A stretch of 59,988 nucleotides of DNA, the filler included, from Globobulimina sp. (Eukaryota), in the NCBI GenBank assembly GCA_003354225.1. It is 6 parts of 6 records of this genome, joined end to end, with 100 filler letters (N's around TTAATTAATTAA, not from the genome) between each part and the next. Parts side by side here need not be neighbours in the genome. Positions count along the whole stretch, not along the records: positions 50,212 to 59,988 come from PIVH01000035.1; 5 more parts are not named here. One strand, given 5' to 3'. Shown piece by piece: positions 10,125 through 59,988 of the stretch. A model generated the notes under the pieces. It had not been told where the DNA came from, ran no database searches, and saw nothing but the letters and a program-made list of their open reading frames with translations. Numbering within the stretch: position 1 is the first letter of the stretch; the number at the start of each line of letters is the position of its first letter. The position numbers and the translations under genes were made by a program.

Positions 10125-10224
10125 NNNNNNNNNNNNNNNNNNNNNNNNNNNNNNNNNNNNNNNNNNNNTTAATTAATTAANNNNNNNNNNNNNNNNNNNN
10201 NNNNNNNNNNNNNNNNNNNNNNNN
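10125..10224. other. Artificial contig linker
   Basis: N44-TTAATTAATTAA-N44, giving stops in all six frames. Confidence 0.99.
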
Positions 10225-11305: not shown

Positions 11306-11329
11306 CTTCAAAACTTTAAGAAATCAATT
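11306..11329 (+). repeat. Terminal inverted repeat, left arm (24 bp)
   Basis: CTTCAAAACTTTAAGAAATCAATT is the exact reverse complement of 19791-19814. Confidence 0.95.
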
Positions 11330-19814: not shown

Positions 19815-19827
19815 AAAAAAAAAAAAA

Positions 19828-20259: not shown

Positions 20260-20359
20260 NNNNNNNNNNNNNNNNNNNNNNNNNNNNNNNNNNNNNNNNN
20301 NNNTTAATTAATTAANNNNNNNNNNNNNNNNNNNNNNNNNNNNNNNNNNNNNNNNNNNN
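20260..20359. other. Artificial contig linker
   Basis: N44-TTAATTAATTAA-N44. Confidence 0.99.
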
Positions 20360-30251: not shown

Positions 30252-30351
30252 NNNNNNNNNNNNNNNNNNNNNNNNNNNNNNNNNNNNNNNNNNNNTTAAT
30301 TAATTAANNNNNNNNNNNNNNNNNNNNNNNNNNNNNNNNNNNNNNNNNNNN
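30252..30351. other. Artificial contig linker
   Basis: N44-TTAATTAATTAA-N44. Confidence 0.99.
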
Positions 30352-30386: not shown

Positions 30387-32696
30387 ATGGATGATTTCTC
30401 GCAAATCCCATTCCCAAAATCGCCAGAACTAAATCGTATCATTAATACTTGTAATATTCGCCCAAATCCATTAAAAAGAAATTATATTGAATCCACGCTT
30501 TTAGATACCGGCAATCCGCAGTTCAAAACCACCAAATTATTTTCCATCCAGAATCCCGGCGCTAACATCCAGACATTATCGTATATCAAAGGCATAGAAA
30601 ATGTCCCTGCCTCAGCCGATACCATTAAAATTAAATGTACCTCGGAGACTGTCCCAGACACTGTAACCTCGTTCAGTGAGTATGATGATTTGAAAATCGA
30701 CTTCAATCAACGCCATATTAGATTTAATCGCCGCAGAACCATTACCAAAACCAAAGCGTATGTCGAAGAGACCCGCACTGATAAAATGATCCGCAAATAT
30801 AATGACGGACAAATCAACCGTAACCGCAAATGGATTGCCAATGCAGCCAAATACCATAATGAGATCGGTGTAAACTTCCATGTTCGCATTGTATTCGGCA
30901 AAGTATTCATTAACGATCGCATATCGGACCGAATATGGATCCACAAAGAGGAGGACTTTATTGCTGCCCTGAATGATGCCGATATCATTAAAACGAGAGC
31001 TGAATTATTACCCACTGTGTCCCCATTAACTGTGTTATTTGCCTCCTCATCATACTCCTATTATTATGCTGATAAATCATTTTATAACTCATTAGAGCGC
31101 ATCGATGGCGACACCCAAGGAATCCTGACGTATATCAGTGCATTACACGGCAGAATTAAAAAAACCGGATCCGGTTTCAGCTACGTTGCGACTGACCAAC
31201 AGTTGCATGGATATATTAACAGCATCATCAACGAGCCGCTGCCATTAATATACAAAGTAAAATTCAATAACTATCCATTACTAATGACTGTAGCCGACAA
31301 CGTTGCAGAATATCATGATGGTGACTATTATGGGCATGCACGTGGCTGCAATTCGATGGCGTTTCCTGTCAAAAAAACGGGTGTTTATTTTGGGTGCCGC
31401 AAGAAATTAAAACGAATATTCAACTTAACTGTATTAGACAATATGGACACACTCAACAGATACCAGGCACATACCATTGATTTAGGATACATTTGGGATG
31501 TCTTAGGGTATCACATCACTAATCCGCGGTGCCTGAAATTGACTTTGATGAAATGTAATGCCGTAACTGCCAAAGCATGGTATTGCTCCACAAAGCACTC
31601 GCTTTTACGTGGAAACATCTTGGATTTATACCATTTATCGCCGTATTTGAACCGCAAAGAAGTAGATTATGTGTTAAGTAATGTTGCGCCAATCGAGCCT
31701 GACATCCATGTGATAAATTACGCGCATCCATATCAAATGCATTCGTACGCAAATACCTTCAAATTTCAATTTAAAAACACACCGCGCTATCTTTTAACTG
31801 GTGTTCCTGCCGCGGACTTGCATGATAATAATTATTTTTATGCGAACAAAGCGTTGGCGTCAAACTCGTTTATTGTTGGTGGCACAGAGGTACATATTAC
31901 GGAGACATACCGTAATGACATTATTGCTATGTCGACGATGCATTTACAATTAGCAAATAAATGTGTTTATGACCCATCATATTTTTGCCTGACACCAAAT
32001 CACTGTAAATCATTCGATGCGAAATTAGAAGAATTAAAAATGAAAATTGAATCTGATATGGCCAGAGATGGCAAGACAGCGAATGTCATCACTACGACCC
32101 TTAATAAATTGCATAAAGCCACAATCCAATCGAAATGCGGCCATTTAACCTCAAAATGCAAAGGCTGCCCCACGATACGACCCCAATTAGAGGATGGATT
32201 TAAAGGCATTCCTGGCTTAGGAAACGCACCGAGTGAACACACATTGATCACTTATTATCACTCCTTTGCTATATCGCGCATTAAGGACCTTACAATCGAT
32301 GGTGTGCCGGTCGTGTGGAGTGAAATGAATACGATGGATCAGTTAGGTTTGACTTTCCATGAAGAAATCGCTGCGAAATTCCAGAATAATGATATTGGCA
32401 ATCTGTTATTTCATAAAATATTGACAATCTCCGCCCAAAATGACCTGATTTTGAATGAAAACGCGTTGGAAACCCTGCTCATTAAACAGAATGAAGGCGT
32501 CACTCTACGTATTCGCACGAAAGTAATCAAGAAATATGCCATCCAACACGACGATGACTCGGATGACGACGACGATGATCACACAAATAATGACAATAAA
32601 AACCATAATGACGATGACGATGTGGATGTGGACAATGCGATAATGAGCGGAGATAATGTCAATGATGAACAATATGACTCCGTCGATGAACCATAA
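30387..32696 (+). CDS. Retrotransposon 2 ORF1 (probably 5'-incomplete), no recognised domain
   Basis: 769-aa ORF ending 5 nt before ORF2; Cys/His clusters (FCLTPNHC, KCGHLTSKCKGC) and an acidic tail. Confidence 0.65.
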   Translation: MDDFSQIPFPKSPELNRIINTCNIRPNPLKRNYIESTLLDTGNPQFKTTKLFSIQNPGANIQTLSYIKGIENVPASADTIKIKCTSETVPDTVTSFSEYDDLKIDFNQRHIRFNRRRTITKTKAYVEETRTDKMIRKYNDGQINRNRKWIANAAKYHNEIGVNFHVRIVFGKVFINDRISDRIWIHKEEDFIAALNDADIIKTRAELLPTVSPLTVLFASSSYSYYYADKSFYNSLERIDGDTQGILTYISALHGRIKKTGSGFSYVATDQQLHGYINSIINEPLPLIYKVKFNNYPLLMTVADNVAEYHDGDYYGHARGCNSMAFPVKKTGVYFGCRKKLKRIFNLTVLDNMDTLNRYQAHTIDLGYIWDVLGYHITNPRCLKLTLMKCNAVTAKAWYCSTKHSLLRGNILDLYHLSPYLNRKEVDYVLSNVAPIEPDIHVINYAHPYQMHSYANTFKFQFKNTPRYLLTGVPAADLHDNNYFYANKALASNSFIVGGTEVHITETYRNDIIAMSTMHLQLANKCVYDPSYFCLTPNHCKSFDAKLEELKMKIESDMARDGKTANVITTTLNKLHKATIQSKCGHLTSKCKGCPTIRPQLEDGFKGIPGLGNAPSEHTLITYYHSFAISRIKDLTIDGVPVVWSEMNTMDQLGLTFHEEIAAKFQNNDIGNLLFHKILTISAQNDLILNENALETLLIKQNEGVTLRIRTKVIKKYAIQHDDDSDDDDDDHTNNDNKNHNDDDDVDVDNAIMSGDNVNDEQYDSVDEP

Positions 32697-32701
32697 TCTC
32701 T

Positions 32702-35700
32702 ATGTTTAGCTGCCCCAACAATGGCTGTATCAGCCCAATCGTCATAAATTATTACAATTTGCGCCTAATTCCTATGCCTTCCTACCTTTGTTTTGTAGTA
32801 TTATTACTATATTTGTATCAAATTAAATGCATCCATACCGCCATTAGCTCTCTTTTTTCCTTATTTATATGCACTGCCAATTTCTCTTTTTTCTCATACC
32901 CATTAATAATAAATCACCTTTTTTCTCTATTTCTAACCAATACTACCTCTTTTTTCTCCAATTTATTACCTTTATTTACCATTTTTTTCTTATTTTTATC
33001 TCATTTTAGTTCTTCTTTTTTCGATAATACGTTCATTGATTTGCATAATGTGAATATTGTCACAACCAATGCACTGAACCATTCTCCTTATTTTAAATTA
33101 CATTCAAAACCAATTCTTGTTTTAATCACTCTCAAAATAAAACATAGACAAAACAGTAGTGACCAAAAGCAATTCCGCTCTGCACTTGACACGCTGCAAA
33201 ATAACAGATTCTACCTCGGAATCAAGACAACGTACTCCATCCATAACTATTTTAATCATTACATGAACGTCATTCAAACTGAGTGTGTAACGGGATACAT
33301 GATCAGCACTAAGGATCATAAACACACACAATCACTGTATCGCTTTATTGAGCGATATCAACACAGACTGCGGAAAATCTATCGATATCTCAAAATCATA
33401 ATGGATAAATCATTGAGATGGATCACTGTGCGTATGCCACAGCATCGATATCACCCGATCAAATCCTATATTATAAATCACTTTCCATCACATATACCCA
33501 TTCGGTTTAAGAAGATACCATATCTCAATGAAACCGCTGAGCTAACACTTTACAGACAGCTCCATGCATTCAGTAAAAGTCCTGCAAAAGTTTTGGCTCT
33601 GTACGACTTTATACTCAAAAACAACTATGTAGAAAACGACGTGATTTTGAAACAAGCAGTCGCAAATAACAACTACCACATAAAATGGTTTGTCCCCACA
33701 GATAAAAAAGTACATGACATTAGAAATCATTGGCAAGGCACACATAACAGTTTAAATGTGAACATACACTCCGCAAATCGCGATAACTGGATAAATAATC
33801 AAAAAAACAATGCAGTTATCTCGTTAAACCAAATATTTAAGCAAGCGGTAAACAAATATCACACTACAAACACACAACTCCGTAATTATAAAAACTATTT
33901 AATAAATAAAGTAATACAGGGACACGTCAACAACGCAGCGCAATCCGATCATGATATTCCTGATATAATCCTAAAATATCCATTCATGCAAATATATGCA
34001 CCATCCATTGAACCAATAACATCGACCCAAATCAAATTGAAAAGCATGAAAATTGGATTTATGAACATCAATGGAAGTGCCAAAACTAAAATAAATCAAA
34101 TGCATCCATATATGCAGCAACTTGTAACCCATCACAAACTTGACATAATACTCTTAATTGACACCAGAACAAAACATCGACCAAATTGGAGACTACCTGG
34201 CTACAAATTAATGGCACATAAAGCGCCCATAGCCACAAATAATCTGCAGAATGTTGGAGGAATCCTAATTTATTACCGATATAACTTGAAAAATAAAATC
34301 AATTTAATCAAAAAAACGAGAGGACATAATACAGCATGGATCTCCGTGAAAATCAAAAACCAAATCAAACCCACATACATTGCCATAAATTACACTCGAA
34401 CATATAAACCAAATTTGAGTGATCGCAGTCTCAAATTTTATAACTCCCTCACTGACGATATAAATAATTACAAATCACAGTGCCATAATATGTACGTAAT
34501 TGGAGATTTTAATGCCAGAATGGGCTCTCTGACAATGGACCATAACACAAATGGCCACTACCGATACATGAAAATGATGCTTGATCGCACCAACCTAAAA
34601 ATAGCCAATCCACAATTTGCTCCTAAATTCCTTACCTGTTTGGCAAAAGGCGCCCAAAATAGTGGTGGTTCAATTATAGATTATGTAATCACCAACAAAC
34701 TAAGCTCCATTAAATCGATGCACGTTGATACTCATCCGGTCTTTATGGACCATAGACCAGTTGTGTTCACCTTAAATAACACCAAATGTGAGACCACCAC
34801 CATTGATAAACACCTAATACTAAGAACTGGCGCCCCCAACACCGCACTCATAAAAATACATGATAAAATAATAAAAAAATCCACAAAATACCTCAAACAA
34901 TTTACAGAGAACATAAATCAACCTCGCAACAAAAATGAACGACAATTCATCTCCCACATCACCTCCATCACTACGGCCTACATTTTGCATCTTGCCTCAA
35001 TCAAAGCGTTCGGTTTGGCGGATTTCAACACTATGAACAAATGGGCAACGCTGTCACGGAAACAAATCACATTAAACATAAAGCAGAGATTGTTAATGAA
35101 TACCAATAATAATACCAATGCGGGCAAAGAACTAATGGCAGCGGCTGAGGCAGAATATATTCAGAATAAACAGAATACCTTGACACAAAACACCATAAAA
35201 TTCAGCAATCTTAACCATTCCAACAAATTGAAGACCTTTAAAACGTATAACAAAAACAAGGATTTCATTTTGGATGAACCCTTCTTGCATTATAATAATA
35301 CCATAATGGATAAAAATGAGGCACTGTCGCAATTTTTCTGCAAAATAAATGGTCCCATAGATGACCCCAACGATAATCCCCATATACAAAACATAAATGA
35401 TTTCCAAAATGCACTCAATATGCCGTCGAACAACCATTTAACTTTCATTCCACAGATACCCACAGATGACCTAAAAATAACACATGAAACATCACCAATT
35501 CCTACAATCACAAATATTGAAATGAATGTAGATTATAAAGAGGAAGAGGATGTATTACAAACCCCGCACTACGACCCCAACTATGTCCCAATAACACAAC
35601 CCATCATGAACGAATTATATGCGTTGGAACATAGTGACCAAACCTATAACAGTGATGATGATGTAATTTTAGATATGACCTCCCAAACACTGCACTCCCC

Positions 35701-38700
35701 GCTGACTTGTACCAACTTAACTGAGGAAGATGAAAAAAAGGAGACAGAGGATGCCCCAAACTGCCAAAATACTCCAAAAACAAACAAAAAAGCTAAATAT
35801 CGCTCCATTGAATTGGCCATTTCCTATGCAAATCAAAACAGTGCTCCAGGATATGATGGAATAAAATCGGTACACCTCAAAACCAACGGAAACTCCATAA
35901 ATGAATTATTATGTACAATGTTCAATGTTTGGAATAAGTCGTTCTTCATTCCATATTACTGGAGACTCGGCACTGTGATACCAATATTAAAAACAAAAGA
36001 GGGCAACACGCCAAACCAATACAGACCCATTACATTATTACCTATCATTTTTAAGACATACGAAAGACTCATCCTCTGGGAAATGAGCATAAAACATAAA
36101 TTCAGAAGAAATCTACATACGTTGCAAGGCGGTAACAGATCCAGAAGAGGTGTGCCAGAACAGATTGGCTGTATCAATTTAATTGCAGAAACTGCCAAAA
36201 TGCGAGAGATTCCCCTTTATTGTGCCCTCCTTGACATCCGTAAGGCGTTTGACACAGTTTGGAGAAAAGGGCTCCTCTTCAAACTAAACAAGCAATTCAA
36301 AATACCACTAAATCTCTGCAAAATAATTCAGGCAATCTATGATAACACACAGTCTGCCATCAGAGATATACCCTTCATAACAAACAAATTCATGCTTCAT
36401 AATGGTGTGCTGCAAGGATCAGTCCTTTCACCTGTCCTCTACGCAGCATTCCTAAATGACCTAATTGAGGAACTACAAAATTCCAAATGTGGCGCCGCTT
36501 CGCCTGACCCCAATGAACTAATTGCCTGCACTCTGTACGCCGATGACATCATACTTACTGCGAATAAAATCTCCCACTTAAATAAGCTCCTAAAAATCTG
36601 CCAGAACCACAGCAACCATTGGAAATACCGATTTAATAATAAAAAATCTAAAACAATCATTTATAATGATAATACATTGAACAATAACAACATAAACACA
36701 TATAATATCAATGACATAATGCTAATAAATCATGAATACCATAATATAAATGCGATAAATAACAACAAACCCGCACCGATGATATTAATACAAAAACCTA
36801 TCAATCACAAAGTGTTGGCGATAAACATAAACAATACACTGCAATCCTATGATACCGATGAGATCCCACAAAAACACTTACAACGCTTTATAGACCATAT
36901 CAAATTCTACGATGATATCAGTAATAAACCATATCCGATAATGTGGGATAATATACGCTACGACCGAGACTTTGCACCGTCAGTAATGCATCTAAAGCTG
37001 AGACTCAATGGAGAAAGTCTACACTGTACAACTTTCATCAGATATCTAGGTGCTATGTTGTGCAGCTACGACTGCTCCAACTTGGTGTCGACGGAGTATA
37101 CAAATGCGGCGTTCCTTAAAAAACTTGACTCAAAAGCTCACATTTTGTCGACCTTAGACTTTAACCACATTTATATTTCACTCGCTGACAAAATACGAAT
37201 ACTGAAGACGTTCTACCTAGTCTACACAGAAATATTTGCACAAATTCTTGATTGTGACAAAATAAAACTCAAACAAGCCACAGACAAACAACTCAAAACA
37301 ATCCGTATACAAACAAAAATAAAAGACTTTGTTCCCGCGCAGCTTTACCTTTGGGCAGGAATCCCCACACCATATGAGAGATGGGTATCACTCAAAATCT
37401 CATTTTATTGGAAATTAATAAAAGGAGGAAACATTTCAATGATGCACCAATGGGCAAAACTCCCCCATATCCATCACCACAAACTCTTTAAACAATATAT
37501 TGATTTGAAAAACAAATGGCTGCCGCCAGTACGCCAAACCACAAACAATCGCATAACTTGGACAAACCCATTTGATTCTGTCACCCATTCACACGAACTA
37601 AAACCACTAATTGTAAAAAATCAACACATACAAATAATCAATAATTTAAATCATTACCATCCAATCAAAATCCTAAATCATGTCACAGATAATTACAAAC
37701 CGATGAATAGCTACGAACTCAACGAATTGGCAGATTACGTAAAGAATAATATGATAACTGTATATAGAGAGATATTCTATAATTTCAATACTAAAAATAA
37801 TTACTGCCACCTCTGCCATACTCGTACAAATATACCAATTGAATACCACTTAGCAGTGCTCTGCCCAAACCTAAACACCTTGAGACATGAATACTGGAAT
37901 CATGCCTCTGCAATATTTGCAAAAAGCGGCGCGGCAATAAACAAAATACATCATCATCTTTACATGCAACGACTAATTGAAATGTGCGAAAATGTCAATA
38001 CACAAAAAGCCCAATTCTGGAAAATCCTATGTGGTGCAAATATATACAACACTGACACCAATAATTTCACCTACATACATAAACAAATAAACATTAACAC
38101 AAATAAACATACCTTATACAGAGAGGTAATCTCCCAAACACACCGCTGGCTCTCCCACACACTCGACATAAACAATGGCAATAGCACCATAAGACGCATC
38201 CGATCCAAACACAACTTAGTCCCCTCAAAAATGATAATATTCCACACACGCAATGACAATTTCCATGAATGGAGATATTACCAACATAAAATCAACAGTA
38301 ATGACCTAATAATCGCCACAGACTCATCTCGCGATCCACAAACAAACACTGCAGGCATAGGCATCTGCATCATAGACAGAAACAAAATACATTGCTTCAC
38401 ACAACCTATTGGCCCGCAGTCTAATCATTATGGCGAACTCTATGCCATTCACAAATCACAATTCCTCCTCAATTACTGCAAAATAGATACTTCCAATCGG
38501 AGAATCTTAATATTTACGGACTCTTTATTCAACTTCCTTCCCCTCATAATCACTCCAAAAAATCCAAATAACAAACCACTATCCATCCTATTTAAGAACA
38601 CACAAAATTATATCAAACGTAAACAAATCATATTATGGAAAGTAAAATCACATACCAAACCCCACCAACAACCCTTTAATATGATTGCAGATATCCTAGC

Positions 38701-38881
38701 AAATATTGGCCGACAACACCCCTACAATTCTAATGTAATCACCACAAACTATAATTCAATCAGATATGCAAAATATAAATCATTCCTCTATCCTCAGGGT
38801 ATCATACCCAATGACCTTTACTCTCTCGCCGGGATGTTCAAGCAATCGGTGAGTATGGAGCCAGACTTAGATCCTGGCTGA
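32702..38881 (+). CDS. Retrotransposon 2 ORF2 polyprotein (2059 aa)
   Basis: APE: FMNING, GDFNAR, IIDY, MDH. RT: APGYDGI, YRPITL, LDIRKAFD, GVLQGSVLSP, YADD, YLG. Zinc finger: CHLC...YHLAVLC. RNase H: ATDSS, GELYAI, FTDS, VKSH, NMIADILA. Confidence 0.93.
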   Translation: MFSCPNNGCISPIVINYYNLRLIPMPSYLCFVVLLLYLYQIKCIHTAISSLFSLFICTANFSFFSYPLIINHLFSLFLTNTTSFFSNLLPLFTIFFLFLSHFSSSFFDNTFIDLHNVNIVTTNALNHSPYFKLHSKPILVLITLKIKHRQNSSDQKQFRSALDTLQNNRFYLGIKTTYSIHNYFNHYMNVIQTECVTGYMISTKDHKHTQSLYRFIERYQHRLRKIYRYLKIIMDKSLRWITVRMPQHRYHPIKSYIINHFPSHIPIRFKKIPYLNETAELTLYRQLHAFSKSPAKVLALYDFILKNNYVENDVILKQAVANNNYHIKWFVPTDKKVHDIRNHWQGTHNSLNVNIHSANRDNWINNQKNNAVISLNQIFKQAVNKYHTTNTQLRNYKNYLINKVIQGHVNNAAQSDHDIPDIILKYPFMQIYAPSIEPITSTQIKLKSMKIGFMNINGSAKTKINQMHPYMQQLVTHHKLDIILLIDTRTKHRPNWRLPGYKLMAHKAPIATNNLQNVGGILIYYRYNLKNKINLIKKTRGHNTAWISVKIKNQIKPTYIAINYTRTYKPNLSDRSLKFYNSLTDDINNYKSQCHNMYVIGDFNARMGSLTMDHNTNGHYRYMKMMLDRTNLKIANPQFAPKFLTCLAKGAQNSGGSIIDYVITNKLSSIKSMHVDTHPVFMDHRPVVFTLNNTKCETTTIDKHLILRTGAPNTALIKIHDKIIKKSTKYLKQFTENINQPRNKNERQFISHITSITTAYILHLASIKAFGLADFNTMNKWATLSRKQITLNIKQRLLMNTNNNTNAGKELMAAAEAEYIQNKQNTLTQNTIKFSNLNHSNKLKTFKTYNKNKDFILDEPFLHYNNTIMDKNEALSQFFCKINGPIDDPNDNPHIQNINDFQNALNMPSNNHLTFIPQIPTDDLKITHETSPIPTITNIEMNVDYKEEEDVLQTPHYDPNYVPITQPIMNELYALEHSDQTYNSDDDVILDMTSQTLHSPLTCTNLTEEDEKKETEDAPNCQNTPKTNKKAKYRSIELAISYANQNSAPGYDGIKSVHLKTNGNSINELLCTMFNVWNKSFFIPYYWRLGTVIPILKTKEGNTPNQYRPITLLPIIFKTYERLILWEMSIKHKFRRNLHTLQGGNRSRRGVPEQIGCINLIAETAKMREIPLYCALLDIRKAFDTVWRKGLLFKLNKQFKIPLNLCKIIQAIYDNTQSAIRDIPFITNKFMLHNGVLQGSVLSPVLYAAFLNDLIEELQNSKCGAASPDPNELIACTLYADDIILTANKISHLNKLLKICQNHSNHWKYRFNNKKSKTIIYNDNTLNNNNINTYNINDIMLINHEYHNINAINNNKPAPMILIQKPINHKVLAININNTLQSYDTDEIPQKHLQRFIDHIKFYDDISNKPYPIMWDNIRYDRDFAPSVMHLKLRLNGESLHCTTFIRYLGAMLCSYDCSNLVSTEYTNAAFLKKLDSKAHILSTLDFNHIYISLADKIRILKTFYLVYTEIFAQILDCDKIKLKQATDKQLKTIRIQTKIKDFVPAQLYLWAGIPTPYERWVSLKISFYWKLIKGGNISMMHQWAKLPHIHHHKLFKQYIDLKNKWLPPVRQTTNNRITWTNPFDSVTHSHELKPLIVKNQHIQIINNLNHYHPIKILNHVTDNYKPMNSYELNELADYVKNNMITVYREIFYNFNTKNNYCHLCHTRTNIPIEYHLAVLCPNLNTLRHEYWNHASAIFAKSGAAINKIHHHLYMQRLIEMCENVNTQKAQFWKILCGANIYNTDTNNFTYIHKQININTNKHTLYREVISQTHRWLSHTLDINNGNSTIRRIRSKHNLVPSKMIIFHTRNDNFHEWRYYQHKINSNDLIIATDSSRDPQTNTAGIGICIIDRNKIHCFTQPIGPQSNHYGELYAIHKSQFLLNYCKIDTSNRRILIFTDSLFNFLPLIITPKNPNNKPLSILFKNTQNYIKRKQIILWKVKSHTKPHQQPFNMIADILANIGRQHPYNSNVITTNYNSIRYAKYKSFLYPQGIIPNDLYSLAGMFKQSVSMEPDLDPG

Positions 38882-40230: not shown

Positions 40231-40330
40231 NNNNNNNNNNNNNNNNNNNNNNNNNNNNNNNNNNNNNNNNNNNNTTAATTAATTAANNNNNNNNNNNNNN
40301 NNNNNNNNNNNNNNNNNNNNNNNNNNNNNN
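40231..40330. other. Artificial contig linker
   Basis: N44-TTAATTAATTAA-N44. Confidence 0.99.
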
Positions 40331-50111: not shown

Positions 50112-50211
50112 NNNNNNNNNNNNNNNNNNNNNNNNNNNNNNNNNNNNNNNNNNNNTTAATTAATTAANNNNNNNNNNNNNNNNNNNNNNNNNNNNNNNNN
50201 NNNNNNNNNNN
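50112..50211. other. Artificial contig linker
   Basis: N44-TTAATTAATTAA-N44. Confidence 0.99.
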
Positions 50212-50376
50212 CTGGTATTATTATATCTTCTATTGAAGAGGCAAGAACTTATGCCGTTAATTGTGAACAGCTGATAGGAAGTGATGAGTACATAGATCGT
50301 CTTATCAGCGACGCGAGGAGGTTGTCTCCGCTCCCAGCGCTCTAACCTGTTTTAACGTGTGTGTGTTATATTTATC

Positions 50377-53300
50377 ATGCCCGCTGTGGCCAAGGACAAA
50401 AATGTAAAAACTGTACATAATATTTCTGTTGTAAATAATACTAATATTTTATCGACTACTAACAACGTAAATGTGCCAAATGTATTTTTAATTGACCATG
50501 TTTTATCTACTAATGAAGGTACAAATGAAGGTATAAATGAATCCTGCAAATTTTGTGCAAACCTTAGAAAATGTGTAAAATGCAGGAAAGATGAACGACT
50601 ATTGAAGCAGAAAATGGAGAAAGAAGCGAAGGCGAAACAAAAGGAGTTGGAGAAAGAAAAACTAGAGAAAAAATTTGTGGCAAAAAGAATACAGCCGGCA
50701 AGAGAAGCCAAAACGAGAACAAAACAAGAAAACAAAATAAACTTGAATCCACAGGATTTCTTGGATACTCCAATAACAAAAAGGTATTCTAAAGTGGATA
50801 AAAAACGTGAATCACACGAAGCTAGGTGTGATGGCGATAAAAATCCACATATTGATCATAAATTAAATATAATTGTACATACAACAGGAGAACCCAAAAT
50901 GAGTACAAATAATCCAAAGTTACAGGATATTTCAGATACCATAAAATCGGAAAGTTACTCAAAAGTGGACAATGATCGTGAATCGCACCAAATCAGGTGT
51001 GATGACGACTTAAAACCACAAATTGAGAGTGAACAAAATATACTTGAAATACCAATAATAAAAATTCAAAGTCTAAGAGAACAAATGATTAATATGGAAT
51101 TTACTGCTATGTACCAGAATACTTATACGCCTAAAAAATTAGACATTCAATACATAAATGATGAGCAGAACATAGAACTAAAGGCGAATATAGAAAAAAT
51201 TGAAAAAATAGAAATTATATCGTCGCCATTGGAATTGGTAAATGATTATAAACACAAGGATATAGGTACATACGATATAGTAACTAGATGTGAAAAACTA
51301 ATGGAGAAAAATCAGTCACTAAAAGCTAAATGGAATGCTAATATAGCTGATACAAAGCAAATACAAGCTGGAAGTACATACGATTATACGGGGGAGTATA
51401 TATCAGGTACAGCCGATAATGAGGATAAATCTGAACAAAAGGCAGAGCTAAATGATGATAAATCAATCTTCCTTGGTTACTCTGAAATAAGTTGTGAACA
51501 AACTACTGATATTAATAGAACTGTAGATACAGTGGCAAATAATATGAGTACATACAGTACAGTACCTAAGAAAGAAATCAAACATAAGCGCCATTTAAAT
51601 AAATTGACGCTAATTGTGGGGAATAGACGATACCAGAAAAAATACAATAAACACAGATTCTCTAAATATAAACGTACAATCCCTTATAATAAATTATATA
51701 TGGATGTAATAGATCACATGCGACATAAAACTAATACAAAAATATGTGAAAATGTTAATAAAAGTGTACACAAAGACCTAGATATGTCCCAAAATACCGG
51801 GCGCGTTTTAGACGGCGCAGGAAAAGGGACACCATCTATAGCAATTAAACGCGACCAAATGAACATTTTCTCAGTTCACACCACACAGAATTGCAATTTA
51901 TACAGTAATCTAGAGAGTGATATTACGGTAACAAATGCAAAACAGCTTAATGTGAACACGGAAAATAAAAATGAAAAAATAGAATTTTCGAGAACATTTC
52001 GAAACGAAAACGATCGAAAGGAAGAGGAAGAAATAATATTCGAAAGAAATTTGACGGAATTTATTGGAAAAGTGATAGAACGAGACCAAAATTATTCAAA
52101 ATTGGGAAGAATAAAGGACATAAATCAGGGGAAAAAAGGAAAGAACGACGGAACAAAAGTAAGTTATATACATTTTATTGCGGTAATATTGAAAGATATC
52201 GTATCATCAGTACAAGGTATTATGAGCTATATCGATCCAGTAAAAAATAGCATTAAAACTAAAAAATCGAAAGGTAAATCGACGCAATCTTCAGCGAAGA
52301 AACCTAAAAATAAATCGAATATTATATTACGTTTTGAAGCGGAGGCGAAGGATAACAAGAATTCACTTGAATCCTCACCCCCTTCGACATCAATTGATAA
52401 TAAACATATGCTTGAAATGTTAAGTAATACGAATTATGACGAACAAAATGATAATAGTAAATTAAATGACGACAACGATGAAATAAATGAAATCATAAAT
52501 AATCGAAGAATACTTTCAGGTATGGACAAGAAAGAAGAAGGAAAAGGAGAAACAACGGAAAAACAAAAAATTGAAAAGGAGGCCAATAGCTCAGAACTCA
52601 CTGATGCTATGACCGTCCTTTCAACTGAGAATAACGAAACTTTAACTAAAATGGACTCACAAACGACAAGTACAAATAGAACAGAAACAAGTACAGATAA
52701 TACAGATGACGTATCAGAATATACTGGTTACGCAGCTGCACGGTATAATCCTGAAAATCCAACACACTATTTAGCTCATGTAGATAAATATAAGTACCCT
52801 AAAGCATTAGCTACATTTATAAATGATATATATGACAATAATGACCATCAGATAGATACAGGTAGTATACCCTTGACATTGTCAATCGATACACCTCCTA
52901 TGATGGAAAGTGATATGAGTACAGAAGAGGCAAAATTATTGGAGGTACGAAAATTCTATATATTTCAAATGACCACATTTATGGGATATGAATCCGATGA
53001 AGGACCAAAAAATAGAACGAAGAATATGGAAATTATACAAATTTTACGACGATATATAGATGAATGCATAGAAAAACCGGATACAAAAGTAGCAGGTTCA
53101 CAAATTGGAGCTATAATGGAAAGAATCGAAGAATCACAATTTGTTGGTTTAACAAGATCGATAGATACAATGGAAAATATATTACATATGAATAAAGAAC
53201 ACGTGACTTTTCTCTTGACTACGAATCAATGGATTTTTAGCTTGAGTAAAACTTTGCGTGATAACACTTCAATTATAACAAATCTAAATACTGAAGTTAA

Positions 53301-56064
53301 GAATGCAAACGAACGAACGAAAAATTTGGAATCATATTTTAAACAAAATATGGCTCAAATGTATAACCATTTCAATGAATTGAAAGTGTCGACGGAGGCG
53401 GTACAAAGAGAAAATGTAGAACTTAAAGCACAACTGGGAAATATACAAAAATTAGTAGAGAATATGAACAAAGATATGACAACAGCACAAATATTGCAAG
53501 AGACACCAAAAGAAGAGGAAATGGAACAACCAAGAAATGTAAAAGATATTCTAATTGGAGGAGACATCAACTGTCCATTCCACTGGGATTTCAATACAGG
53601 TATTAGACTTATTACAAAAATTGACGACGAATCAGAAGAAATCATTATGACATATTATAGTTTTTCACATTATTTAATGACTCAAATCGCCATTAGGTGT
53701 TTGGACATAATAATGGTTAAACAACTACAAAATATTAAGAACAAAGCTTGTTTTGATTATATCTTAGCACAATGTCCAATTGAGAAATATATTGAAAATA
53801 TTAAATTATTCACAAACGAGTGGATAGCTGAACAATATTTCAATTATATCAAAGGTTGGACAAGTAAAAGTATCCCTATGGCAGCACTTTGTGGTAAAAT
53901 AGGTTCGGAACAATATAATCCTAAATTCCTGATGACCAATAAATTAGGCATCGGTTATACGGCAAGACAGAAAAATATATATACGGTACATGTTGAAAAG
54001 GACGGAACTGACGAGAATTTACTCGGAGCAGTCATCCAGCATATTGCAAATCAATTTAAAGATAAATATGAGACAGCTGATATTGAAACAAAAAAATATG
54101 CAGATTTTGAATTTAAGGAATCAATGAAATATTGGTCCGTAATGTGCTTAGAGAACGATCAACTCAGATCGATCCGAAATGAAGCAATTTTATGGACAAT
54201 ATGGGATAAAAAATCGAGAATAAACGGAGATATTATGAAATTACGGTTAGAACGATTTACATTTGCAAACACACAGCATGAACCCGGATTTAATCTGGCA
54301 AATGCACCTTGGACAACTCATTTGAATAAAACGGAACTAAACTCGGCTAAACTAATAGCTAAGGATATGTTCCCTGATATGAAACAAGATTATATGACAG
54401 AATTACAAAAACAAATACAAATTATTGTGAACAAAAAAGTGGCTGATACTGAAGCAAGTTATTCTTCAATAGAGCCATCGAACATATTTGATATATTTTC
54501 AACTGAAAAAACGAATGAAGCACAAAAAAATGAACAACAACCACATCCACAGCCCTCACCGGGATGGACCCCGTCACGACAAATACCAACGCCACAACAA
54601 AGAATAATCCCAGATGTACAACCTGTGCCATTTGCCCCATATCAATTTAATTTGCCTACGGTACAACAACAACAACAAATGCAAACCCAACAACAACAAT
54701 CACAACCACAAATAGATCCATCCGAACAATTCAGATTACCATCACAACCAGAACCATATGAACAAAGAGAGCATAGAGGAAGAATGAGAGGAAGAGGAAG
54801 ACAATATAGAAGTGGAATGGGAAGAGGTACATATACTGGTAGGGGGGAACAAGAATTTACCAGTTCTGACTCAAGATCTGAATCTCGTGATCCGCCCTAC
54901 CCCAATATCAAAAATGTGGACAGATCTTATCCATGGTCTGCAGCACATTACATGGGAATAAATGTACCTGGAAAAAGAGAAGCTGTCAGTCCCGCTTCCT
55001 TTGTTGATCCAAAGAAACAAAAACCTATGTCAACAACTGATATTATAAATGAAGTCAGGCATAGATTACCATCCATACCTTACTCATTGAAGTTTGTAGA
55101 AAAGAAAATTGGAGCTGGAGTGGTGTTGGATTTAGCAGCCCACCCAGAACATAACAAAGATATTCATGCTGATAGATGTACAAAAATTATGGGAGATGAC
55201 ACAAGATTTAAAGGAATTCCTTTACCCTTGGCAAGTATAACGGAAAGAAGAGGTTTAAATGAATTCGGGGTTACTGTAGACCCAAAATCGACAATTAAAG
55301 TCCCCAGATTTCTGAAAATCTCAGTAATCGGGGACTCTACAGTAATTGGATTAGAAGAATACTTAAATATGACAATAAATGAATTTGAACCACGAAAATG
55401 GATCAATGGGTACACCGGATCAAAAACATCAAGCAACGCGCTGATGAGTTTACGACTAAGAGAAATGGAATCTCTCATCCCAGGATTCGTCACGGGAGAT
55501 GAAGATGTAATTATAATTAAAGGAGTACTAGATACAGCTGATATCATAAACAATCAAATGAAAGCTAGAGTTACTGATGACTGGAAACATTATTGCGCTG
55601 ATGTGGTACAACAAATTACAAATATAGCACTAAATATACAAAGCATTAACTCAAATGCTTTGATATTGGTGAGTATAACACAACCGATACTTTCAAATAC
55701 ACCATATATGTATGATTCTGAGGATATCGGATTTTTGAGACTTATACACAAAATTGAGGATTATTTTTGGTATTTGTTATATAATATGGCAATAACGAAT
55801 AAATTAGCATTACGTATGATACATTTGGCAGCAGCCATTACAGAAGAAGCTACAAAATTAAAAGACACAGTTGAATTAGAATTAAAGGGTGCAGGAAATA
55901 CAGATGTAAACATCTCTATAAATGACACTTTATTAAAATTCATATACGGTATAAAATTGAAAAATAATGGCAAAAAAGTACTAGCTAATGAGATAGTACG
56001 AGAAACAATAATTGGTTGGTTACGAGGACAAGCAGAAGGAATTTTGAAGAACAAGGGAAACTAA
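50377..56064 (+). CDS. Retrotransposon 3 ORF1 (~1895 aa): low-complexity regions, coiled coil, Q/P- and RG-rich tracts, C-terminal SGNH/GDSL-like domain
   Basis: ISVIGDS, GYTGSK, DVIIIKGVLD and GIKL..NG..VLA..I follow the SGNH block order. Confidence 0.8.
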   Translation: MPAVAKDKNVKTVHNISVVNNTNILSTTNNVNVPNVFLIDHVLSTNEGTNEGINESCKFCANLRKCVKCRKDERLLKQKMEKEAKAKQKELEKEKLEKKFVAKRIQPAREAKTRTKQENKINLNPQDFLDTPITKRYSKVDKKRESHEARCDGDKNPHIDHKLNIIVHTTGEPKMSTNNPKLQDISDTIKSESYSKVDNDRESHQIRCDDDLKPQIESEQNILEIPIIKIQSLREQMINMEFTAMYQNTYTPKKLDIQYINDEQNIELKANIEKIEKIEIISSPLELVNDYKHKDIGTYDIVTRCEKLMEKNQSLKAKWNANIADTKQIQAGSTYDYTGEYISGTADNEDKSEQKAELNDDKSIFLGYSEISCEQTTDINRTVDTVANNMSTYSTVPKKEIKHKRHLNKLTLIVGNRRYQKKYNKHRFSKYKRTIPYNKLYMDVIDHMRHKTNTKICENVNKSVHKDLDMSQNTGRVLDGAGKGTPSIAIKRDQMNIFSVHTTQNCNLYSNLESDITVTNAKQLNVNTENKNEKIEFSRTFRNENDRKEEEEIIFERNLTEFIGKVIERDQNYSKLGRIKDINQGKKGKNDGTKVSYIHFIAVILKDIVSSVQGIMSYIDPVKNSIKTKKSKGKSTQSSAKKPKNKSNIILRFEAEAKDNKNSLESSPPSTSIDNKHMLEMLSNTNYDEQNDNSKLNDDNDEINEIINNRRILSGMDKKEEGKGETTEKQKIEKEANSSELTDAMTVLSTENNETLTKMDSQTTSTNRTETSTDNTDDVSEYTGYAAARYNPENPTHYLAHVDKYKYPKALATFINDIYDNNDHQIDTGSIPLTLSIDTPPMMESDMSTEEAKLLEVRKFYIFQMTTFMGYESDEGPKNRTKNMEIIQILRRYIDECIEKPDTKVAGSQIGAIMERIEESQFVGLTRSIDTMENILHMNKEHVTFLLTTNQWIFSLSKTLRDNTSIITNLNTEVKNANERTKNLESYFKQNMAQMYNHFNELKVSTEAVQRENVELKAQLGNIQKLVENMNKDMTTAQILQETPKEEEMEQPRNVKDILIGGDINCPFHWDFNTGIRLITKIDDESEEIIMTYYSFSHYLMTQIAIRCLDIIMVKQLQNIKNKACFDYILAQCPIEKYIENIKLFTNEWIAEQYFNYIKGWTSKSIPMAALCGKIGSEQYNPKFLMTNKLGIGYTARQKNIYTVHVEKDGTDENLLGAVIQHIANQFKDKYETADIETKKYADFEFKESMKYWSVMCLENDQLRSIRNEAILWTIWDKKSRINGDIMKLRLERFTFANTQHEPGFNLANAPWTTHLNKTELNSAKLIAKDMFPDMKQDYMTELQKQIQIIVNKKVADTEASYSSIEPSNIFDIFSTEKTNEAQKNEQQPHPQPSPGWTPSRQIPTPQQRIIPDVQPVPFAPYQFNLPTVQQQQQMQTQQQQSQPQIDPSEQFRLPSQPEPYEQREHRGRMRGRGRQYRSGMGRGTYTGRGEQEFTSSDSRSESRDPPYPNIKNVDRSYPWSAAHYMGINVPGKREAVSPASFVDPKKQKPMSTTDIINEVRHRLPSIPYSLKFVEKKIGAGVVLDLAAHPEHNKDIHADRCTKIMGDDTRFKGIPLPLASITERRGLNEFGVTVDPKSTIKVPRFLKISVIGDSTVIGLEEYLNMTINEFEPRKWINGYTGSKTSSNALMSLRLREMESLIPGFVTGDEDVIIIKGVLDTADIINNQMKARVTDDWKHYCADVVQQITNIALNIQSINSNALILVSITQPILSNTPYMYDSEDIGFLRLIHKIEDYFWYLLYNMAITNKLALRMIHLAAAITEEATKLKDTVELELKGAGNTDVNISINDTLLKFIYGIKLKNNGKKVLANEIVRETIIGWLRGQAEGILKNKGN
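56055..56061 (+). promoter_or_regulatory. Putative -1 ribosomal frameshift slippery heptamer G_GGA_AAC
   Basis: X_XXY_YYZ in ORF1 phase, immediately before the ORF1 TAA. ORF2 is in the -1 frame and is open from 55992. Confidence 0.75.
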
Positions 56065-59000
56065 ATGAGGTCAGTTCAGTTTATAATCATCACTATACAA
56101 ATAATTATAAATATTTATTTTCAGATACAAAACCATACAAACAAATAAACAAAGACAAAGATTATGAAATAAAAATTAATAAGAAACAAATCTTTGATAT
56201 TTTATATCATAATGCTTGTTCTATGAACACAAAAATTGATATTATTCGCGATAATACAAATGAAATAAAACCTGATATAATGTGCTGTGTTGAAACTAAA
56301 TATAAAAATACATTAGACATACACAAAATTGATGGATATGAAGGATTTCATAAAATGCAGACGAATAACAAAACTGGAGGTATAAGTATTTGGACAAAAC
56401 CTGAAATAAAAGCAACAAGATTAGATATAGATGATAACGATGATGATATTGCAGCTAATTATCTATGGATTTTATGTCAAAATAGAAATATGACTGCAGT
56501 ATGCACAGTATATTTAAGAAACCAAAGTGACAAAAAAGCTAGAGACACTAATACAGTGATTTGTCAGCGATTAATCCAGCATACTAATTGGTGTAGAATA
56601 CAAAAATACAAAGTTATCATAATAGGTGACTTTAATGGACACATAGGAAATGATGAATGGGGTATACCCGGAAATCATGATAATATTAATAACAATGGAT
56701 TTATAGTTAGAAATTTCATTAATGATTCTAATTTAATATTAGCTAATAATGATGAACAAACGATAGGAAAATGGACATGGGGAAAAGACAAAAAGAATAC
56801 TCAACCACAAATATTAGATTTGGTATTAAGAACAGAGGATATTATAAATATTAAAATGGAAATTGATGAAAATAACACCATATATGGAAATGGCAATAAA
56901 GATCATTGCTTCATATATGGCCAATTTGAAAGTACAAGAAATGATAATACAAAAAAACAAATAATAAAGAAAAAATGGAAAATAAATGATGAAATAGATT
57001 GGTCACAATATCAAAACGAAATAAAAATAAAACTAGAAAATAGAAATAAAAATGAAGGTATTAATGAAAACGAAATTATACAAATAATTGAACAAACGGG
57101 GGAAAACACTATAGGATATAAAAATAATATAGGAAAAACAAAAAGAAAAGAATCAAAAAAAATAAAAATGATTAATGAACAAATTAAAATTATTAGAAAA
57201 AAATTACGACAGAAAAATATTTTTAAAGGGAATTTAATGAACGAATTATTTACAAAATTAAGAGAAAAAAAACAGATTAGAATGAGAGCTGAAATGGCGA
57301 GAATAGAGAAAGCACATAATAAATGGATAAACAATCCTAAACGAAAATTCCACCAATTATACGATTCAATGAAAACATTAAAACGAGGAGTTACCGAACA
57401 AGTAACACTAATTGATGATCAAAATCAACCAATAATTGGAGAGGAAAAAATAAAACAGCATATATCTGAATTTTGGGAAGATATTTTCACGCTTGGTATA
57501 TGGCCAGAAGCCAATGACAACATAAAAAGATTAGGATTGAGTGACACTATAAAAGGACCTGATAAACTGGAATTAGAAAATGAAATTACTACAAAGGAAA
57601 TGAATAATGCAATAAAGAAATTAAAAAATAATACTTCTGCAGGATCAACGAATTTACCACCAGAATTTATTAAAAACTGGCCTCCGGAAATGATAGAAAC
57701 TGTCAGAGTACTATTTAATAAATGGTATGACACTAGTTACTTCCCAGAAATTGGGAAAACACAAGAAGTAACTTTATTACATAAAAAAGGATCAAAAAGT
57801 AAAATAAAAAATTATAGAACTTTAAGTTTAGGATGTAATTTATGCAAATTATACCTTCACATTATCACAAAACGAATTGAAGTAGTTACAGAGAAGAAAA
57901 ATCTACTAGGATATATACAACATGGATTTAGAGCTAATAAAAGAATAGAAGATTGTATTATGGTAATACAACATACTATCGATAAAGCTAAAAAATTAAG
58001 ACAATCTGAATCTTCAATTATAGCACTACTAGACATATGTAAAGCATATGATAGAGTATGGCGTGAAGGATTATGGAAAAAACTTAAAGAATATGGATTC
58101 CCAGACAAATTAATTAATGCTATAAAAAGTAGCTACCAAAATCCAGGAGCAACTATTACATTCCAAAATATTACAACAAATAAATTACCTATGCCTGTTG
58201 GATTAAGACAAGGGTGTACAATGTCGCCAATACTCTGGAATTTATACATATCAGATTTAGGACGAGAAATTGAAAAATGTAACTTGGGAATCGATATTGG
58301 CAATGCACAAAACAAAAAGAATATTTCTGGACTATTCTTTGCAGACGATATGTTACTATTTGCTAAAAACGAAAAGAACATGAAACTTTTATTGAAGATA
58401 GTAAGCAATTATGCACAAAAATGGAAAATCGAATTTTCAGGTCCAAAGTCACTAATAATCCCTTTAAAAAGAAATATTGATAACGAATATAGATGGGCAC
58501 TGGGATACAAATTTTTAAAAGAAACTACAAAAACAGATATTTATATACAAGAAGAAAAAGAGGCTAAATACTTAGGTATTACCCTCAGTAAACACAAACG
58601 AGACATGACAACTCAGCACAAAGTAAGACTTAGAGAGACAACAATGAAACAAACGTATAAATGTTATAAACCAGCCATTTCAACAGCAAGACAAATAGTA
58701 TATGGATCTAAAATATGGAAAACATATGTAATAGCAAGAATTTTACATGGAATTGCAGCTATAATATTTTCCAACAAAACTTTTATTGGAATTGAAAAAC
58801 AACAACGACAATATATAAGAACAATATCTAGATTACCCAGACATACCAATCTCATGGTATTATATGGTGAAACGGATATAATACCCATGCAAATGGAAGC
58901 TGAAAAAAGAACTATTAACTATTTGGCACATTTACAAAAGTTGGATACTAATAACATAGTAAAAATAGCATTACTAGACCAAATGGAAATGTATGACAAC

Positions 59001-59600
59001 AATCCTTCAACAACTACATGGTTAAAACATGCGTATAATTGTTGTAGAAAATATAATATTAGCTACAATAATATACCAAGTAAAAGTAAGGTAAAAGAAT
59101 GTATACATAACAAATGGATAGAGGAATACCGAGACAAATTAGACCAATCTAATTCCTTAATACTGTACTTAAGTAAAACCACTCCTAAAATCAATTATAA
59201 ATTAAATTTGCATACAGGTGGTGACTTTTGGCTAAAAGCAAGAAGCGGTAGCATGATTATAAATGCAAATAGAAATGAATCATGTACTAGATGTGAATAT
59301 GACATATTAGAAAACATAAATCATATGATTTGGGAATGCGAAAATAACATAATGCTTGATAATTATGAAAATAATATACAAAAATTATGGATTCTACTCC
59401 CAGACGATATAAATGGACATCTTAAACCAGATTATAATAATTGTACAGATATGGACCGAAAGGCATATTTGTTTCTATGTTCTGAGTTTATATTTAGTGA
59501 CAATGCTAGTGGACAAATAATCAATATAGTGGGCACAATAATAAAAGACACATATAATATTCGACCAGAAACTATACAATATAAGTTACAAAGAAAATAA
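56055..59600 (+). CDS. Retrotransposon 3 ORF2: AP endonuclease, reverse transcriptase, CCHC finger (no RNase H)
   Basis: APE: YHNACS, VET, GDFNGH, ILDL, KDH. RT: NYRTLSL, QHGFR, LDICKAYD, GLRQGCTMSP, FADD, YLG. Zinc finger: CTRC...ENINHMIWEC. Confidence 0.95.
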   Translation, partial: GKLNEVSSVYNHHYTNNYKYLFSDTKPYKQINKDKDYEIKINKKQIFDILYHNACSMNTKIDIIRDNTNEIKPDIMCCVETKYKNTLDIHKIDGYEGFHKMQTNNKTGGISIWTKPEIKATRLDIDDNDDDIAANYLWILCQNRNMTAVCTVYLRNQSDKKARDTNTVICQRLIQHTNWCRIQKYKVIIIGDFNGHIGNDEWGIPGNHDNINNNGFIVRNFINDSNLILANNDEQTIGKWTWGKDKKNTQPQILDLVLRTEDIINIKMEIDENNTIYGNGNKDHCFIYGQFESTRNDNTKKQIIKKKWKINDEIDWSQYQNEIKIKLENRNKNEGINENEIIQIIEQTGENTIGYKNNIGKTKRKESKKIKMINEQIKIIRKKLRQKNIFKGNLMNELFTKLREKKQIRMRAEMARIEKAHNKWINNPKRKFHQLYDSMKTLKRGVTEQVTLIDDQNQPIIGEEKIKQHISEFWEDIFTLGIWPEANDNIKRLGLSDTIKGPDKLELENEITTKEMNNAIKKLKNNTSAGSTNLPPEFIKNWPPEMIETVRVLFNKWYDTSYFPEIGKTQEVTLLHKKGSKSKIKNYRTLSLGCNLCKLYLHIITKRIEVVTEKKNLLGYIQHGFRANKRIEDCIMVIQHTIDKAKKLRQSESSIIALLDICKAYDRVWREGLWKKLKEYGFPDKLINAIKSSYQNPGATITFQNITTNKLPMPVGLRQGCTMSPILWNLYISDLGREIEKCNLGIDIGNAQNKKNISGLFFADDMLLFAKNEKNMKLLLKIVSNYAQKWKIEFSGPKSLIIPLKRNIDNEYRWALGYKFLKETTKTDIYIQEEKEAKYLGITLSKHKRDMTTQHKVRLRETTMKQTYKCYKPAISTARQIVYGSKIWKTYVIARILHGIAAIIFSNKTFIGIEKQQRQYIRTISRLPRHTNLMVLYGETDIIPMQMEAEKRTINYLAHLQKLDTNNIVKIALLDQMEMYDNNPSTTTWLKHAYNCCRKYNISYNNIPSKSKVKECIHNKWIEEYRDKLDQSNSLILYLSKTTPKINYKLNLHTGGDFWLKARSGSMIINANRNESCTRCEYDILENINHMIWECENNIMLDNYENNIQKLWILLPDDINGHLKPDYNNCTDMDRKAYLFLCSEFIFSDNASGQIINIVGTIIKDTYNIRPETIQYKLQRK

Positions 59601-59813
59601 ATTTAAATACAAATAACATTTACTACAATCTAATGATTTGATCAAGAAAGATTCCATTGGACTCAAGCCAGATGCCTCCAAGATGACCAGAATCCGGAAT
59701 TCGAAGATGGCAAACTGGGAATCTAAAGAATCAAATCAAAAATAAATTAACATTTAATTAACATTTACTAATTCAATTGTGATTTTACTAACATTTATTT
59801 TGTGATACAAATT

Positions 59814-59898
59814 GTGATGATTAGGAAGCCTTGTTACTTATATTATAAGTCTGTGCTTTTACAAATAAATTGAACTGACCAAAAAAAATTGAACTGAC
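59814..59898 (+). promoter_or_regulatory. 3' UTR element complementary to the frameshift-proximal sequence 56069-56093
   Basis: GTGATGATTA (59814-59823) and ATAAATTGAACTGACC (59865-59880), plus a second copy AAATTGAACTGAC (59886-59898). Confidence 0.7.
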
Positions 59899-59988
59899 AT
59901 AAGGCAAGTAAAAGGTGTTTTGGGCTTTAAAATCTTGTTTTTAATGTTGTTCGTGAGCACACATATATTAGGGTTAGCAAAAAATGTG

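Follow-up and report, generated by a model that had tools for sequence, protein, structure and literature searches.

A candidate -1 frameshift signal in a LINE-type retrotransposon of Globobulimina sp., predicted to pair with the element's own 3' terminus

Introduction

How the second open reading frame (ORF2) of long interspersed nuclear elements (LINEs) is translated, and why the ORF2 protein prefers its own RNA, are long-standing questions. A retroelement from Globobulimina sp. (assembly GCA_003354225.1) has its ORF2 in the -1 frame relative to ORF1. The stretch of DNA analysed, called the window here at its full length of 59,988 nucleotides (nt), consists of six contigs of about 10 kb each, joined in descending order of length, and no feature is readable across the joints. 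The last contig (50212-59988; 9.8 kb; PIVH01000035.1) is nearly all one retroelement, referred to below as the window element. It is an intact APE- and reverse transcriptase (RT)-bearing non-LTR (without long terminal repeats), LINE-type retrotransposon, because its ORF2 has a match to RVT_1 (E = 1.3e-33) as well as to two endonuclease families, Exo_endo_phos_2 (E = 5.7e-07) and Exo_endo_phos (E = 1.8e-04), with the APE-type endonuclease domain preceding the reverse transcriptase domain.

A reading made from the sequence alone had proposed that the RNA just downstream of a slippery heptamer pairs over a long distance with the 3' untranslated region (3'UTR), and that this pairing is the stimulator of the frameshift that leads into ORF2. 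Comparison with relatives supports the proposal, through covariation in a diverged family member designated L004, the position of the predicted helix, and the identification of its partner as the element terminus.

The shift site between ORF1 and ORF2

The ORF1-ORF2 overlap measures 73 nt, and within it lies G_GGA_AAC, a heptamer of the X_XXY_YYZ form set in the upstream frame, as in a canonical -1 signal, with the ORF1 stop TAA at 56062-64 directly behind it. This heptamer is counted among the most shift-prone in the relevant passages of a recoding review (PMC5009743). The first ATG in the ORF2 frame stands at 56220, corresponding to residue 77, which falls beyond the start of the stretch aligning with the endonuclease N-terminus of the relatives; ORF2 of the window element thus lacks an independent start codon upstream of its endonuclease domain. 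The ORF2 protein is most likely made, to judge from this layout, as an ORF1-ORF2 fusion through -1 frameshifting at G_GGA_AAC.

The public sequencing run X1 contains 89% of the sampled words. An assembly slip does not account for the frame arrangement, since a contig from this run covering 54967-56293 shows, among the differences listed, 11 substitutions, each located upstream of 56055, and is free of indels. The lack of a comparable local stem beyond the spacer, which the sequence-only reading had asserted, was borne out, with no RNA structure after the heptamer of the window element rising above shuffled controls (z = -0.05 and -0.16).

A predicted 16-bp helix joining the shift site to the 3' end

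The proposed pairing of GGTCAGTTCAGTTTA (56069-83) with TAAATTGAACTGACC (59866-80), 15 bp including one G-U, is present in the sequence and is extended by one further pair, 56084 with 59865. The resulting helix, termed helix 1, comprises 16 bp with a single G-U (56079 with 59870), and its arms are separated by 3812 nt. It begins 7 nt past the heptamer, exactly as had been claimed, the spacer being TAAATGA, and this falls within the 5-9 nt characteristic of -1 stimulators; the corresponding helix of L004 begins 6 nt past its heptamer, and in both elements the partner is 3.8-3.9 kb away.

The position of helix 1 was evaluated by ranking and by shuffling. When every 25-nt segment was duplexed with the 300-nt 3'UTR, the 5' arm ranked first of 9364 at -24.0 kcal/mol, and when 30-nt segments were duplexed with the last 90 nt, the segment following the heptamer ranked first of 9519 at -23.6 kcal/mol, the runner-up reaching -21.2. 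For the control against shuffled sequence, the 40-nt segment following the heptamer was subjected to dinucleotide shuffling and duplexed with the last 30 nt of the element; the cognate duplex of the window element has an energy of -22.5 kcal/mol, and the observed value was reached by none of 2000 shuffles (z = -5.8). Minimum-energy folds of 3.8-5.6 kb retain the helix entire, with 16/16 pairs in the window element, including the 5.6-kb fold of 54300-59888, and 18/18 pairs in L004. Helix 1 is thus exceptional by position, beyond what chance would give.

Compensatory change in a diverged relative

Protein searches returned three close relatives of ORF2, at 68, 63 and 56% identity, and the DNA of family members L002, L003, L004, L012 and L013 was recovered from one record set within genome_contigs. 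The L004 contig, of 10.4 kb, contains a complete element, whose ORF2 is 56% identical in amino acids and 68.5% in nucleotides to that of the window element. Its layout is alike: ORF2 is again shifted by -1 from the ORF1 frame, with an overlap of 19 nt, the overlap contains G_GAA_AAC (6386-92), and a spacer TATTAA follows. The 5' arm of L004 at 6399-6416 (GGGACAACAATTTTACTT) is the perfect complement of 10295-10312, the last 18 nt ahead of an A5 run, which gives a helix of 18 bp with its arms 3.9 kb apart (3914 nt).

With the register set from the first base past the spacer and from the last base ahead of the poly(A), the two helices can be compared pair by pair. Nine of the 16 shared pairs have changed on both sides and are still paired, the remaining seven are identical, and none is broken. 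The L004 duplex (-31.3 kcal/mol) was likewise reached by none of 2000 shuffles (z = -6.7), and the segment following its heptamer ranks first of 10162 against the last 90 nt, at -26.6 against -22.1 for the next. Swapped partners pair weakly, the 5' arm of the window element with the L004 tail giving -7.3 kcal/mol and the 5' arm of L004 with the window tail -7.0 kcal/mol. The two elements consequently form natural orthogonal pairs, each 5' arm fitting only its own tail, and offer a ready-made swap experiment.

Two further features of the comparison concern the placement of the helix. The distance from the ORF1 stop differs, being 4 nt in the window element and 0 nt in L004, whereas the spacing from the heptamer is similar (7 and 6 nt). 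Across the arms, the ORF2 residues of the two elements fail to align, and the nucleotides at the 5' arm are therefore free to follow the tail. As in the window element, no local structure above shuffles follows the L004 heptamer (z = +0.40). The sequence-only reading would have fallen had relatives lacked the pairing; instead, a perfect helix stands in the same place, and the comparison indicates that helix 1 is a conserved, covarying long-range interaction located at the very position expected of a -1 stimulator.

The 3' terminus of the element

The comparison took in the 3' ends of five family members, the window element, L002, L012, L004 and L013, of which L012 and L013 are known as 3' ends only. 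The inner stem of a hairpin, with ACTTAT and ATAAGT enclosing ATT, is present in all five, without covariation. It is followed by a lineage-specific tail, which is TAAATTGAACTGACC in both the window element and L002, TAAATTGTACTGACC in L012, AAAATTGTTGTCCC in L004 and AAAATTTGCCGTCCC in L013, then by A5-8, and then by unrelated flanks. Because the five ends share this order of hairpin, tail and A5-8 before diverging, 59814-59880 is assigned to the element, 59865-59880 being its very end. The possibility that 59800-59900 lay outside the element, left standing by the sequence-only reading, was thus resolved in favour of an element terminus, with flank only from 59889 onward.

Several observations were made at this end of the element. 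The 3'UTRs of all five members each contain two or three copies of the motif (T)GTGAT, in the window at 59779-59783, 59802-59806 and 59814-59818, and these copies may be a protein-binding repeat rather than a pairing partner. The 10 nt directly past the A8 run, 59889-59898 (TTGAACTGAC), repeat the tail bases 59870-59879; no copy of TTGAACTGAC was found at the 5' end of the contig, and there is no evident target-site duplication in this respect. A search of 55900-59988 against Rfam, with E up to 1, gave no matches, the UnaL2 3' element included. An exact match to the hairpin in contig C544 of G001 was rejected as a chance match, and of 120 stretches matching a 16-nt hairpin motif in viral_contigs none encodes a relative by tblastn, so that these too are chance matches.

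The proposed adjoining second helix

A second helix and a three-way junction had also been proposed. The perfect complementarity of TAATCATCAC (56084-93) and GTGATGATTA (59814-23) is real, and cofolding of short fragments does yield the junction, with the AAGC/GCTT, ACTTAT/ATAAGT hairpin, at -39.0 kcal/mol. The junction is otherwise not supported. When the 30 nt beyond helix 1 were paired with the upstream 3'UTR, the best result was equalled by 48-54 of 1000 shuffles in the window element (p about 0.05), and its equivalent in L004, where the junction has no counterpart, by 288-435 of 1000 (p 0.29-0.44); nor does helix 2 appear in the minimum-energy fold of 54300-59888. Chance is the likeliest origin of helix 2. 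In L004 the predicted fold offers an alternative, in which the helix may continue past an 8-nt bulge with about 10 further pairs, and this would open the conserved hairpin.

Proposed mechanism

The best explanation of the whole is probably that ORF2 of this LINE is expressed by a -1 frameshift stimulated by a 16-bp duplex with the element's own 3' terminus. Frameshifting at G_GGA_AAC would yield the ORF1-ORF2 fusion, and the stimulator would be the duplex with the RNA 3' end 3.8 kb downstream rather than a local hairpin or pseudoknot. Positioned at the mRNA entrance of the ribosome while the heptamer is decoded, the duplex would act in the manner of an antisense RNA oligonucleotide annealed in vitro. 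The function of helix 1 as a -1 frameshift stimulator, taken by itself, is considered likely with good confidence, given its covariation and placement.

Several consequences would follow. If the duplex forms in vivo and raises frameshifting, ORF2 synthesis would depend on an intact 3' end. The helix would also keep the priming site for target-primed reverse transcription (TPRT) beside the emerging ORF2 protein, and the helix would be opened, and frameshifting lowered, once the RT bound the 3' end. In its most complete form, the proposal holds that the extreme 3' terminus of a LINE, its TPRT priming site, is a built-in antisense strand and the sole -1 stimulator, that only 3'-intact RNA gives rise to RT, which emerges beside its template, as a basis for cis-preference, that RT binding shuts off its own synthesis, that sister lineages swapped frameshifting for readthrough (UGA-CUAG, UAA-CAAUUA), and that a cellular mobile element would here provide the first case of a long-range recoding signal outside viruses. 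Belief in this full conjunction leans only slightly towards acceptance. If true, ORF2 synthesis would be tied physically to the element's own 3' priming site, which would give both long-standing questions about LINEs a concrete and testable mechanism.

Contrary observations and alternative explanations

A number of observations weigh against a stimulatory role for the helix. Both arms are visible only in the window element and L004, which apparently come from one sampling context (n = 2). The L004 heptamer, G_GAA_AAC, is non-canonical, in that P-site re-pairing would need a middle G-U, and L004 could perhaps start ORF2 independently, because ATGs in the ORF2 frame occur about 100 nt past the ORF1 stop and before the endonuclease domain. 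The window element and L002 have the same tail over at least 18 nt despite only 73% identity in their ORF2 DNA, and something besides pairing, such as RT recognition, may constrain it. A contig from run X1 with 17.7/22.3 depth carries, among the differences listed, three indels at 59857-59872, and other copies therefore have different tails.

The remaining contrary evidence comes from the junctions of two other family members. L003 comprises the ORF1 end and most of ORF2, but no 3' end, and L002 comprises ORF2 and the 3' end behind an unrelated upstream ORF. In L003 (597-620) ORF1 and ORF2 share one frame, split by TGA and then CTAG, and in L002 (1488-1505) an in-frame TAA is followed by CAATTA. 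Moreover, L002 has the window-type tail but no complementary arm at its junction (-7.3 kcal/mol), its best segment anywhere against its 3' end reaching -20.3 kcal/mol by pairing with another part of the 3'UTR. Contexts of the TGA-CTAG and TAA-CAATTA kind are described as promoting readthrough in the portion of the literature drawn on here (PMC9272376), and the family may toggle between -1 frameshifting and readthrough. No local structure was found after the stops of L003 and L002. For the L003 tail, the complement of the 15-mer behind the stop was sought in G001, which gave 9 matches against 22 for a reversed-pattern control; of the eight matches outside the L003 contig, two were inspected (a 1-mismatch case and one on a short contig), and neither of them proved to be the tail of an element.

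Several of these points feed an alternative in which the helix is real and selected and has another job, whether to protect or present the 3' terminus, to cyclise the RNA for template choice or RT cis-preference, or to switch between translation and reverse transcription, its place beside the shift site being secondary. The 3' arm is the exact terminus where target-primed reverse transcription must begin, the tail shared with L002 is conserved beyond what ORF2 divergence predicts, L004 could use its own ATG, and the relatives with in-frame stops show that the family is not dependent on frameshifting. However, both helices begin 6-7 nt past the heptamer, the spacing of a -1 stimulator, even though their distances from the ORF1 stop differ (4 and 0 nt); neither element has a local stimulator, ORF2 of the window element has no ATG before residue 77, and a duplex in that place would physically block the ribosome whatever its other roles. 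Such a job in place of stimulation is judged unlikely.

A DNA-level origin fares considerably worse. The two arms might form an inverted repeat for whose creation or uniformity template switching or hairpins arising in the course of reverse transcription are responsible, without selection on the RNA; first-strand cDNA would indeed start with sequence nearly identical to the 5' arm, and the 10-nt tail copy just past the A8 run hints at odd events at the 3' end. Nevertheless, no known mechanism copies 16-18 nt to a fixed site 6-7 nt past a heptamer in two lineages with both arms co-changing, and 16-bp arms are presumably too short for conversion between inverted repeats, which makes this origin very improbable. 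Chance complementarity in AT-rich sequence can draw on the unexceptional length of helix 1 (60 inverted pairs are listed in the 9.8-kb contig, including one perfect 15-mer elsewhere) and on an unrelated runner-up duplex against the 300-nt 3'UTR, which at -23.6 kcal/mol is just 0.4 kcal/mol weaker, but the same anchored helix in the diverged L004 with nine compensatory pairs, the first rank among about 10,000 segments in both elements, the absence of any equal among 2000 shuffles and the failure of swapped partners to pair in effect refute it for helix 1, and hardly any weight is left to it.

The element, its family and the rest of the window

The coordinates of the features discussed are collected in Table 1.

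Table 1. Features of the window element and its surroundings, in positions of the whole window
Feature	Position	Strand	Remarks
Contig joints	10125-10224, 20260-20359, 30252-30351, 40231-40330, 50112-50211		Spacers of N44-TTAATTAATTAA-N44
ORF1	50377-56064	+	First ATG to TAA stop; stop-to-stop frame 50356-56064, 1902 aa
ORF2 open frame	55992-59600	+	1202 aa; -1 relative to ORF1; APE endonuclease and reverse transcriptase domains
Slippery heptamer G_GGA_AAC (GGGAAAC)	56055-56061	+	Final two sense codons of ORF1, in the ORF1 frame
7-nt spacer TAAATGA	56062-56068	+	First three bases are the ORF1 stop
Helix 1, 5' arm	56069-56084	+	In a non-conserved ORF2 linker, codons 26-31
Proposed helix 2, 5' arm	56084-56093	+	Marginal, not conserved
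Proposed helix 2, 3' arm	59814-59823	+	Includes the last of the three 3'UTR copies of GTGAT
3'UTR hairpin	59826-59858	+	AAGC/GCTT enclosing ACTTAT-ATT-ATAAGT (59836-59850)
Helix 1, 3' arm	59865-59880	+	Last 16 nt of the element ahead of the poly(A)
A8 tail	59881-59888	+	Element 3' end

The LINE assignment is further consistent with the absence of LTRs, a 3' poly(A) and many 5'-truncated copies. No long terminal direct repeat was found among the repeats listed for the last contig, and no target-site duplication of at least 8 nt was detected between the 3' flank and the first 400-700 nt, where the 5' boundary of the element is not fixed. Depth in run X1 is 3.8-10.8 across the ORF1 bins against 24.9-309 across the ORF2 bins, as would be expected if numerous family copies are truncated at the 5' end. 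Over the first approximately 86 nt of the contig (50212-50297), depth is about ten-fold above that of ORF1 (93 against 4-11) and several contigs diverge at 50297, where a different and commoner repeat probably abuts the 5' end of the element. Other DNA-level copies of the element are absent from the 59,988 nt.

The C-terminal 190-280 aa (approximately) of the ORF1 protein have homologous counterparts at the end of ORF1 in L003 and L004. A Pfam search of ORF1 returned zero families, and the ORF1 C-termini of the window element and L004 gave nothing below E = 0.1 in Pfam, which leaves a likeness of a GDS motif in ORF1 to the SGNH esterases of CR1-like ORF1 proteins unsupported; a search with C-terminal segments of 165-525 aa against a set of 5.8 billion proteins yielded 0 matches. 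The N-terminal part of ORF1 contains a 125-nt direct repeat at 71% identity (50751-50875 and 50922-51046), an internal coding duplication. Upstream of ORF1, L004 carries tandem repeats of about 45 nt (150-560), and the window element has nothing comparable.

The contigs of L002, L003 and L004 are titled as a bacterial metagenome-assembled genome (MAG) yet carry intact LINEs of eukaryotic type; the MAG very likely took in eukaryotic sequence during binning. More distant LINE loci (L001, L005-L007) are incomplete, with the junction, the 3' end or both missing. A scan of metagenome_contigs gave a single locus at 28% identity, and a protein scan of viral_contigs gave 0 relatives. Within the window, two other contigs hold long ORFs distantly similar to this RT (21-28% identity), at 15295-19647 and 32690-38881, which belong to different retroelement families; the contig of the former also has a separate ORF1 at 11303-14899 and an A14 tail near 19816.

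Comparison with known systems

Stringent LINEs such as eel UnaL2 depend on recognition of a 3' stem-loop, with a conserved hairpin near the 3' end followed by a short tail, and all five family members compared here share that arrangement. We know of no pairing of the UnaL2 tail with an internal coding site. For barley yellow dwarf virus (BYDV), ideas have been proposed that parallel the consequences suggested here for the LINE, namely dependence on an intact 3' end, RT emerging beside its template and a shut-off.

Kilobase-range frameshift stimulators have so far been a speciality of a few plant RNA viruses. In BYDV, red clover necrotic mosaic virus (RCNMV) and pea enation mosaic virus 2 (PEMV2), pairing 4 kb distant is required for frameshifting, as covered in parts of the recoding review (PMC5009743), and in these viruses and umbravirus-like RNAs the -1 stimulation needs pairing about 4 kb downstream near the 3' end, according to the same parts and excerpts of a second source (PMC5009743; PMC10602861). 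The candidate LINE signal resembles them in a kilobase-range pairing of shift site and 3'UTR that is conserved among relatives, and in a predicted coupling of polymerase synthesis to the RNA 3' end. The viral signals described in that portion of the review have a local stem-loop 6 nt past the shift site, with an internal loop or bulge of 5-6 nt that makes a kissing contact with a 3' hairpin at its apical loop (PMC5009743). The LINE differs in both respects: there is no local structure beside the shift site in either element (z = -0.05, -0.16 and +0.40), and a plain predicted duplex of 16-18 bp with the single-stranded extreme 3' terminus occupies the stimulator position, the partner being a linear tail downstream of the conserved hairpin and not a hairpin loop. 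Because the local bulged stem-loop and the loop-loop kissing are both absent, the LINE signal is not a member of the luteovirus, dianthovirus and umbravirus class, and it represents a different architecture for what is probably the same purpose; its host, unlike a virus, is a eukaryotic non-LTR retrotransposon.

The -1 programmed ribosomal frameshifting of retroviral and LTR gag-pol genes offers a second parallel, in that the upstream ORF ends with an X_XXY_YYZ heptamer, a short spacer and an RNA barrier follow, and the product is an RT-bearing fusion, although the stimulators there are local hairpins or pseudoknots and the element here is a LINE. Full-text literature searches and the accessible text of the 2016 recoding review contain no retrotransposon precedent for a long-range recoding signal, and among non-LTR elements that text mentions only the HeT-A gag frameshift (PMC5009743).

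The closest likeness in architecture is to frameshifting induced by antisense oligonucleotides. As reported in the sections drawn on here, -1 frameshifting in vitro peaks when the RNA oligonucleotide annealed past the slippery sequence is 12-18 nt long (PMC3001050), and stimulation by an annealed oligonucleotide duplex is likewise described elsewhere, in a source used in part (PMC1616946); a simple duplex between two molecules is sufficient for the effect. The LINE has a predicted duplex of the same simple kind, of 16 and 18 bp with spacers of 7 and 6 nt. Those oligonucleotides are synthetic and act in trans, whereas the antisense strand here is the natural 3' end of the same RNA; if the proposal is true, this plain-duplex architecture would be a natural counterpart of antisense-induced frameshifting.

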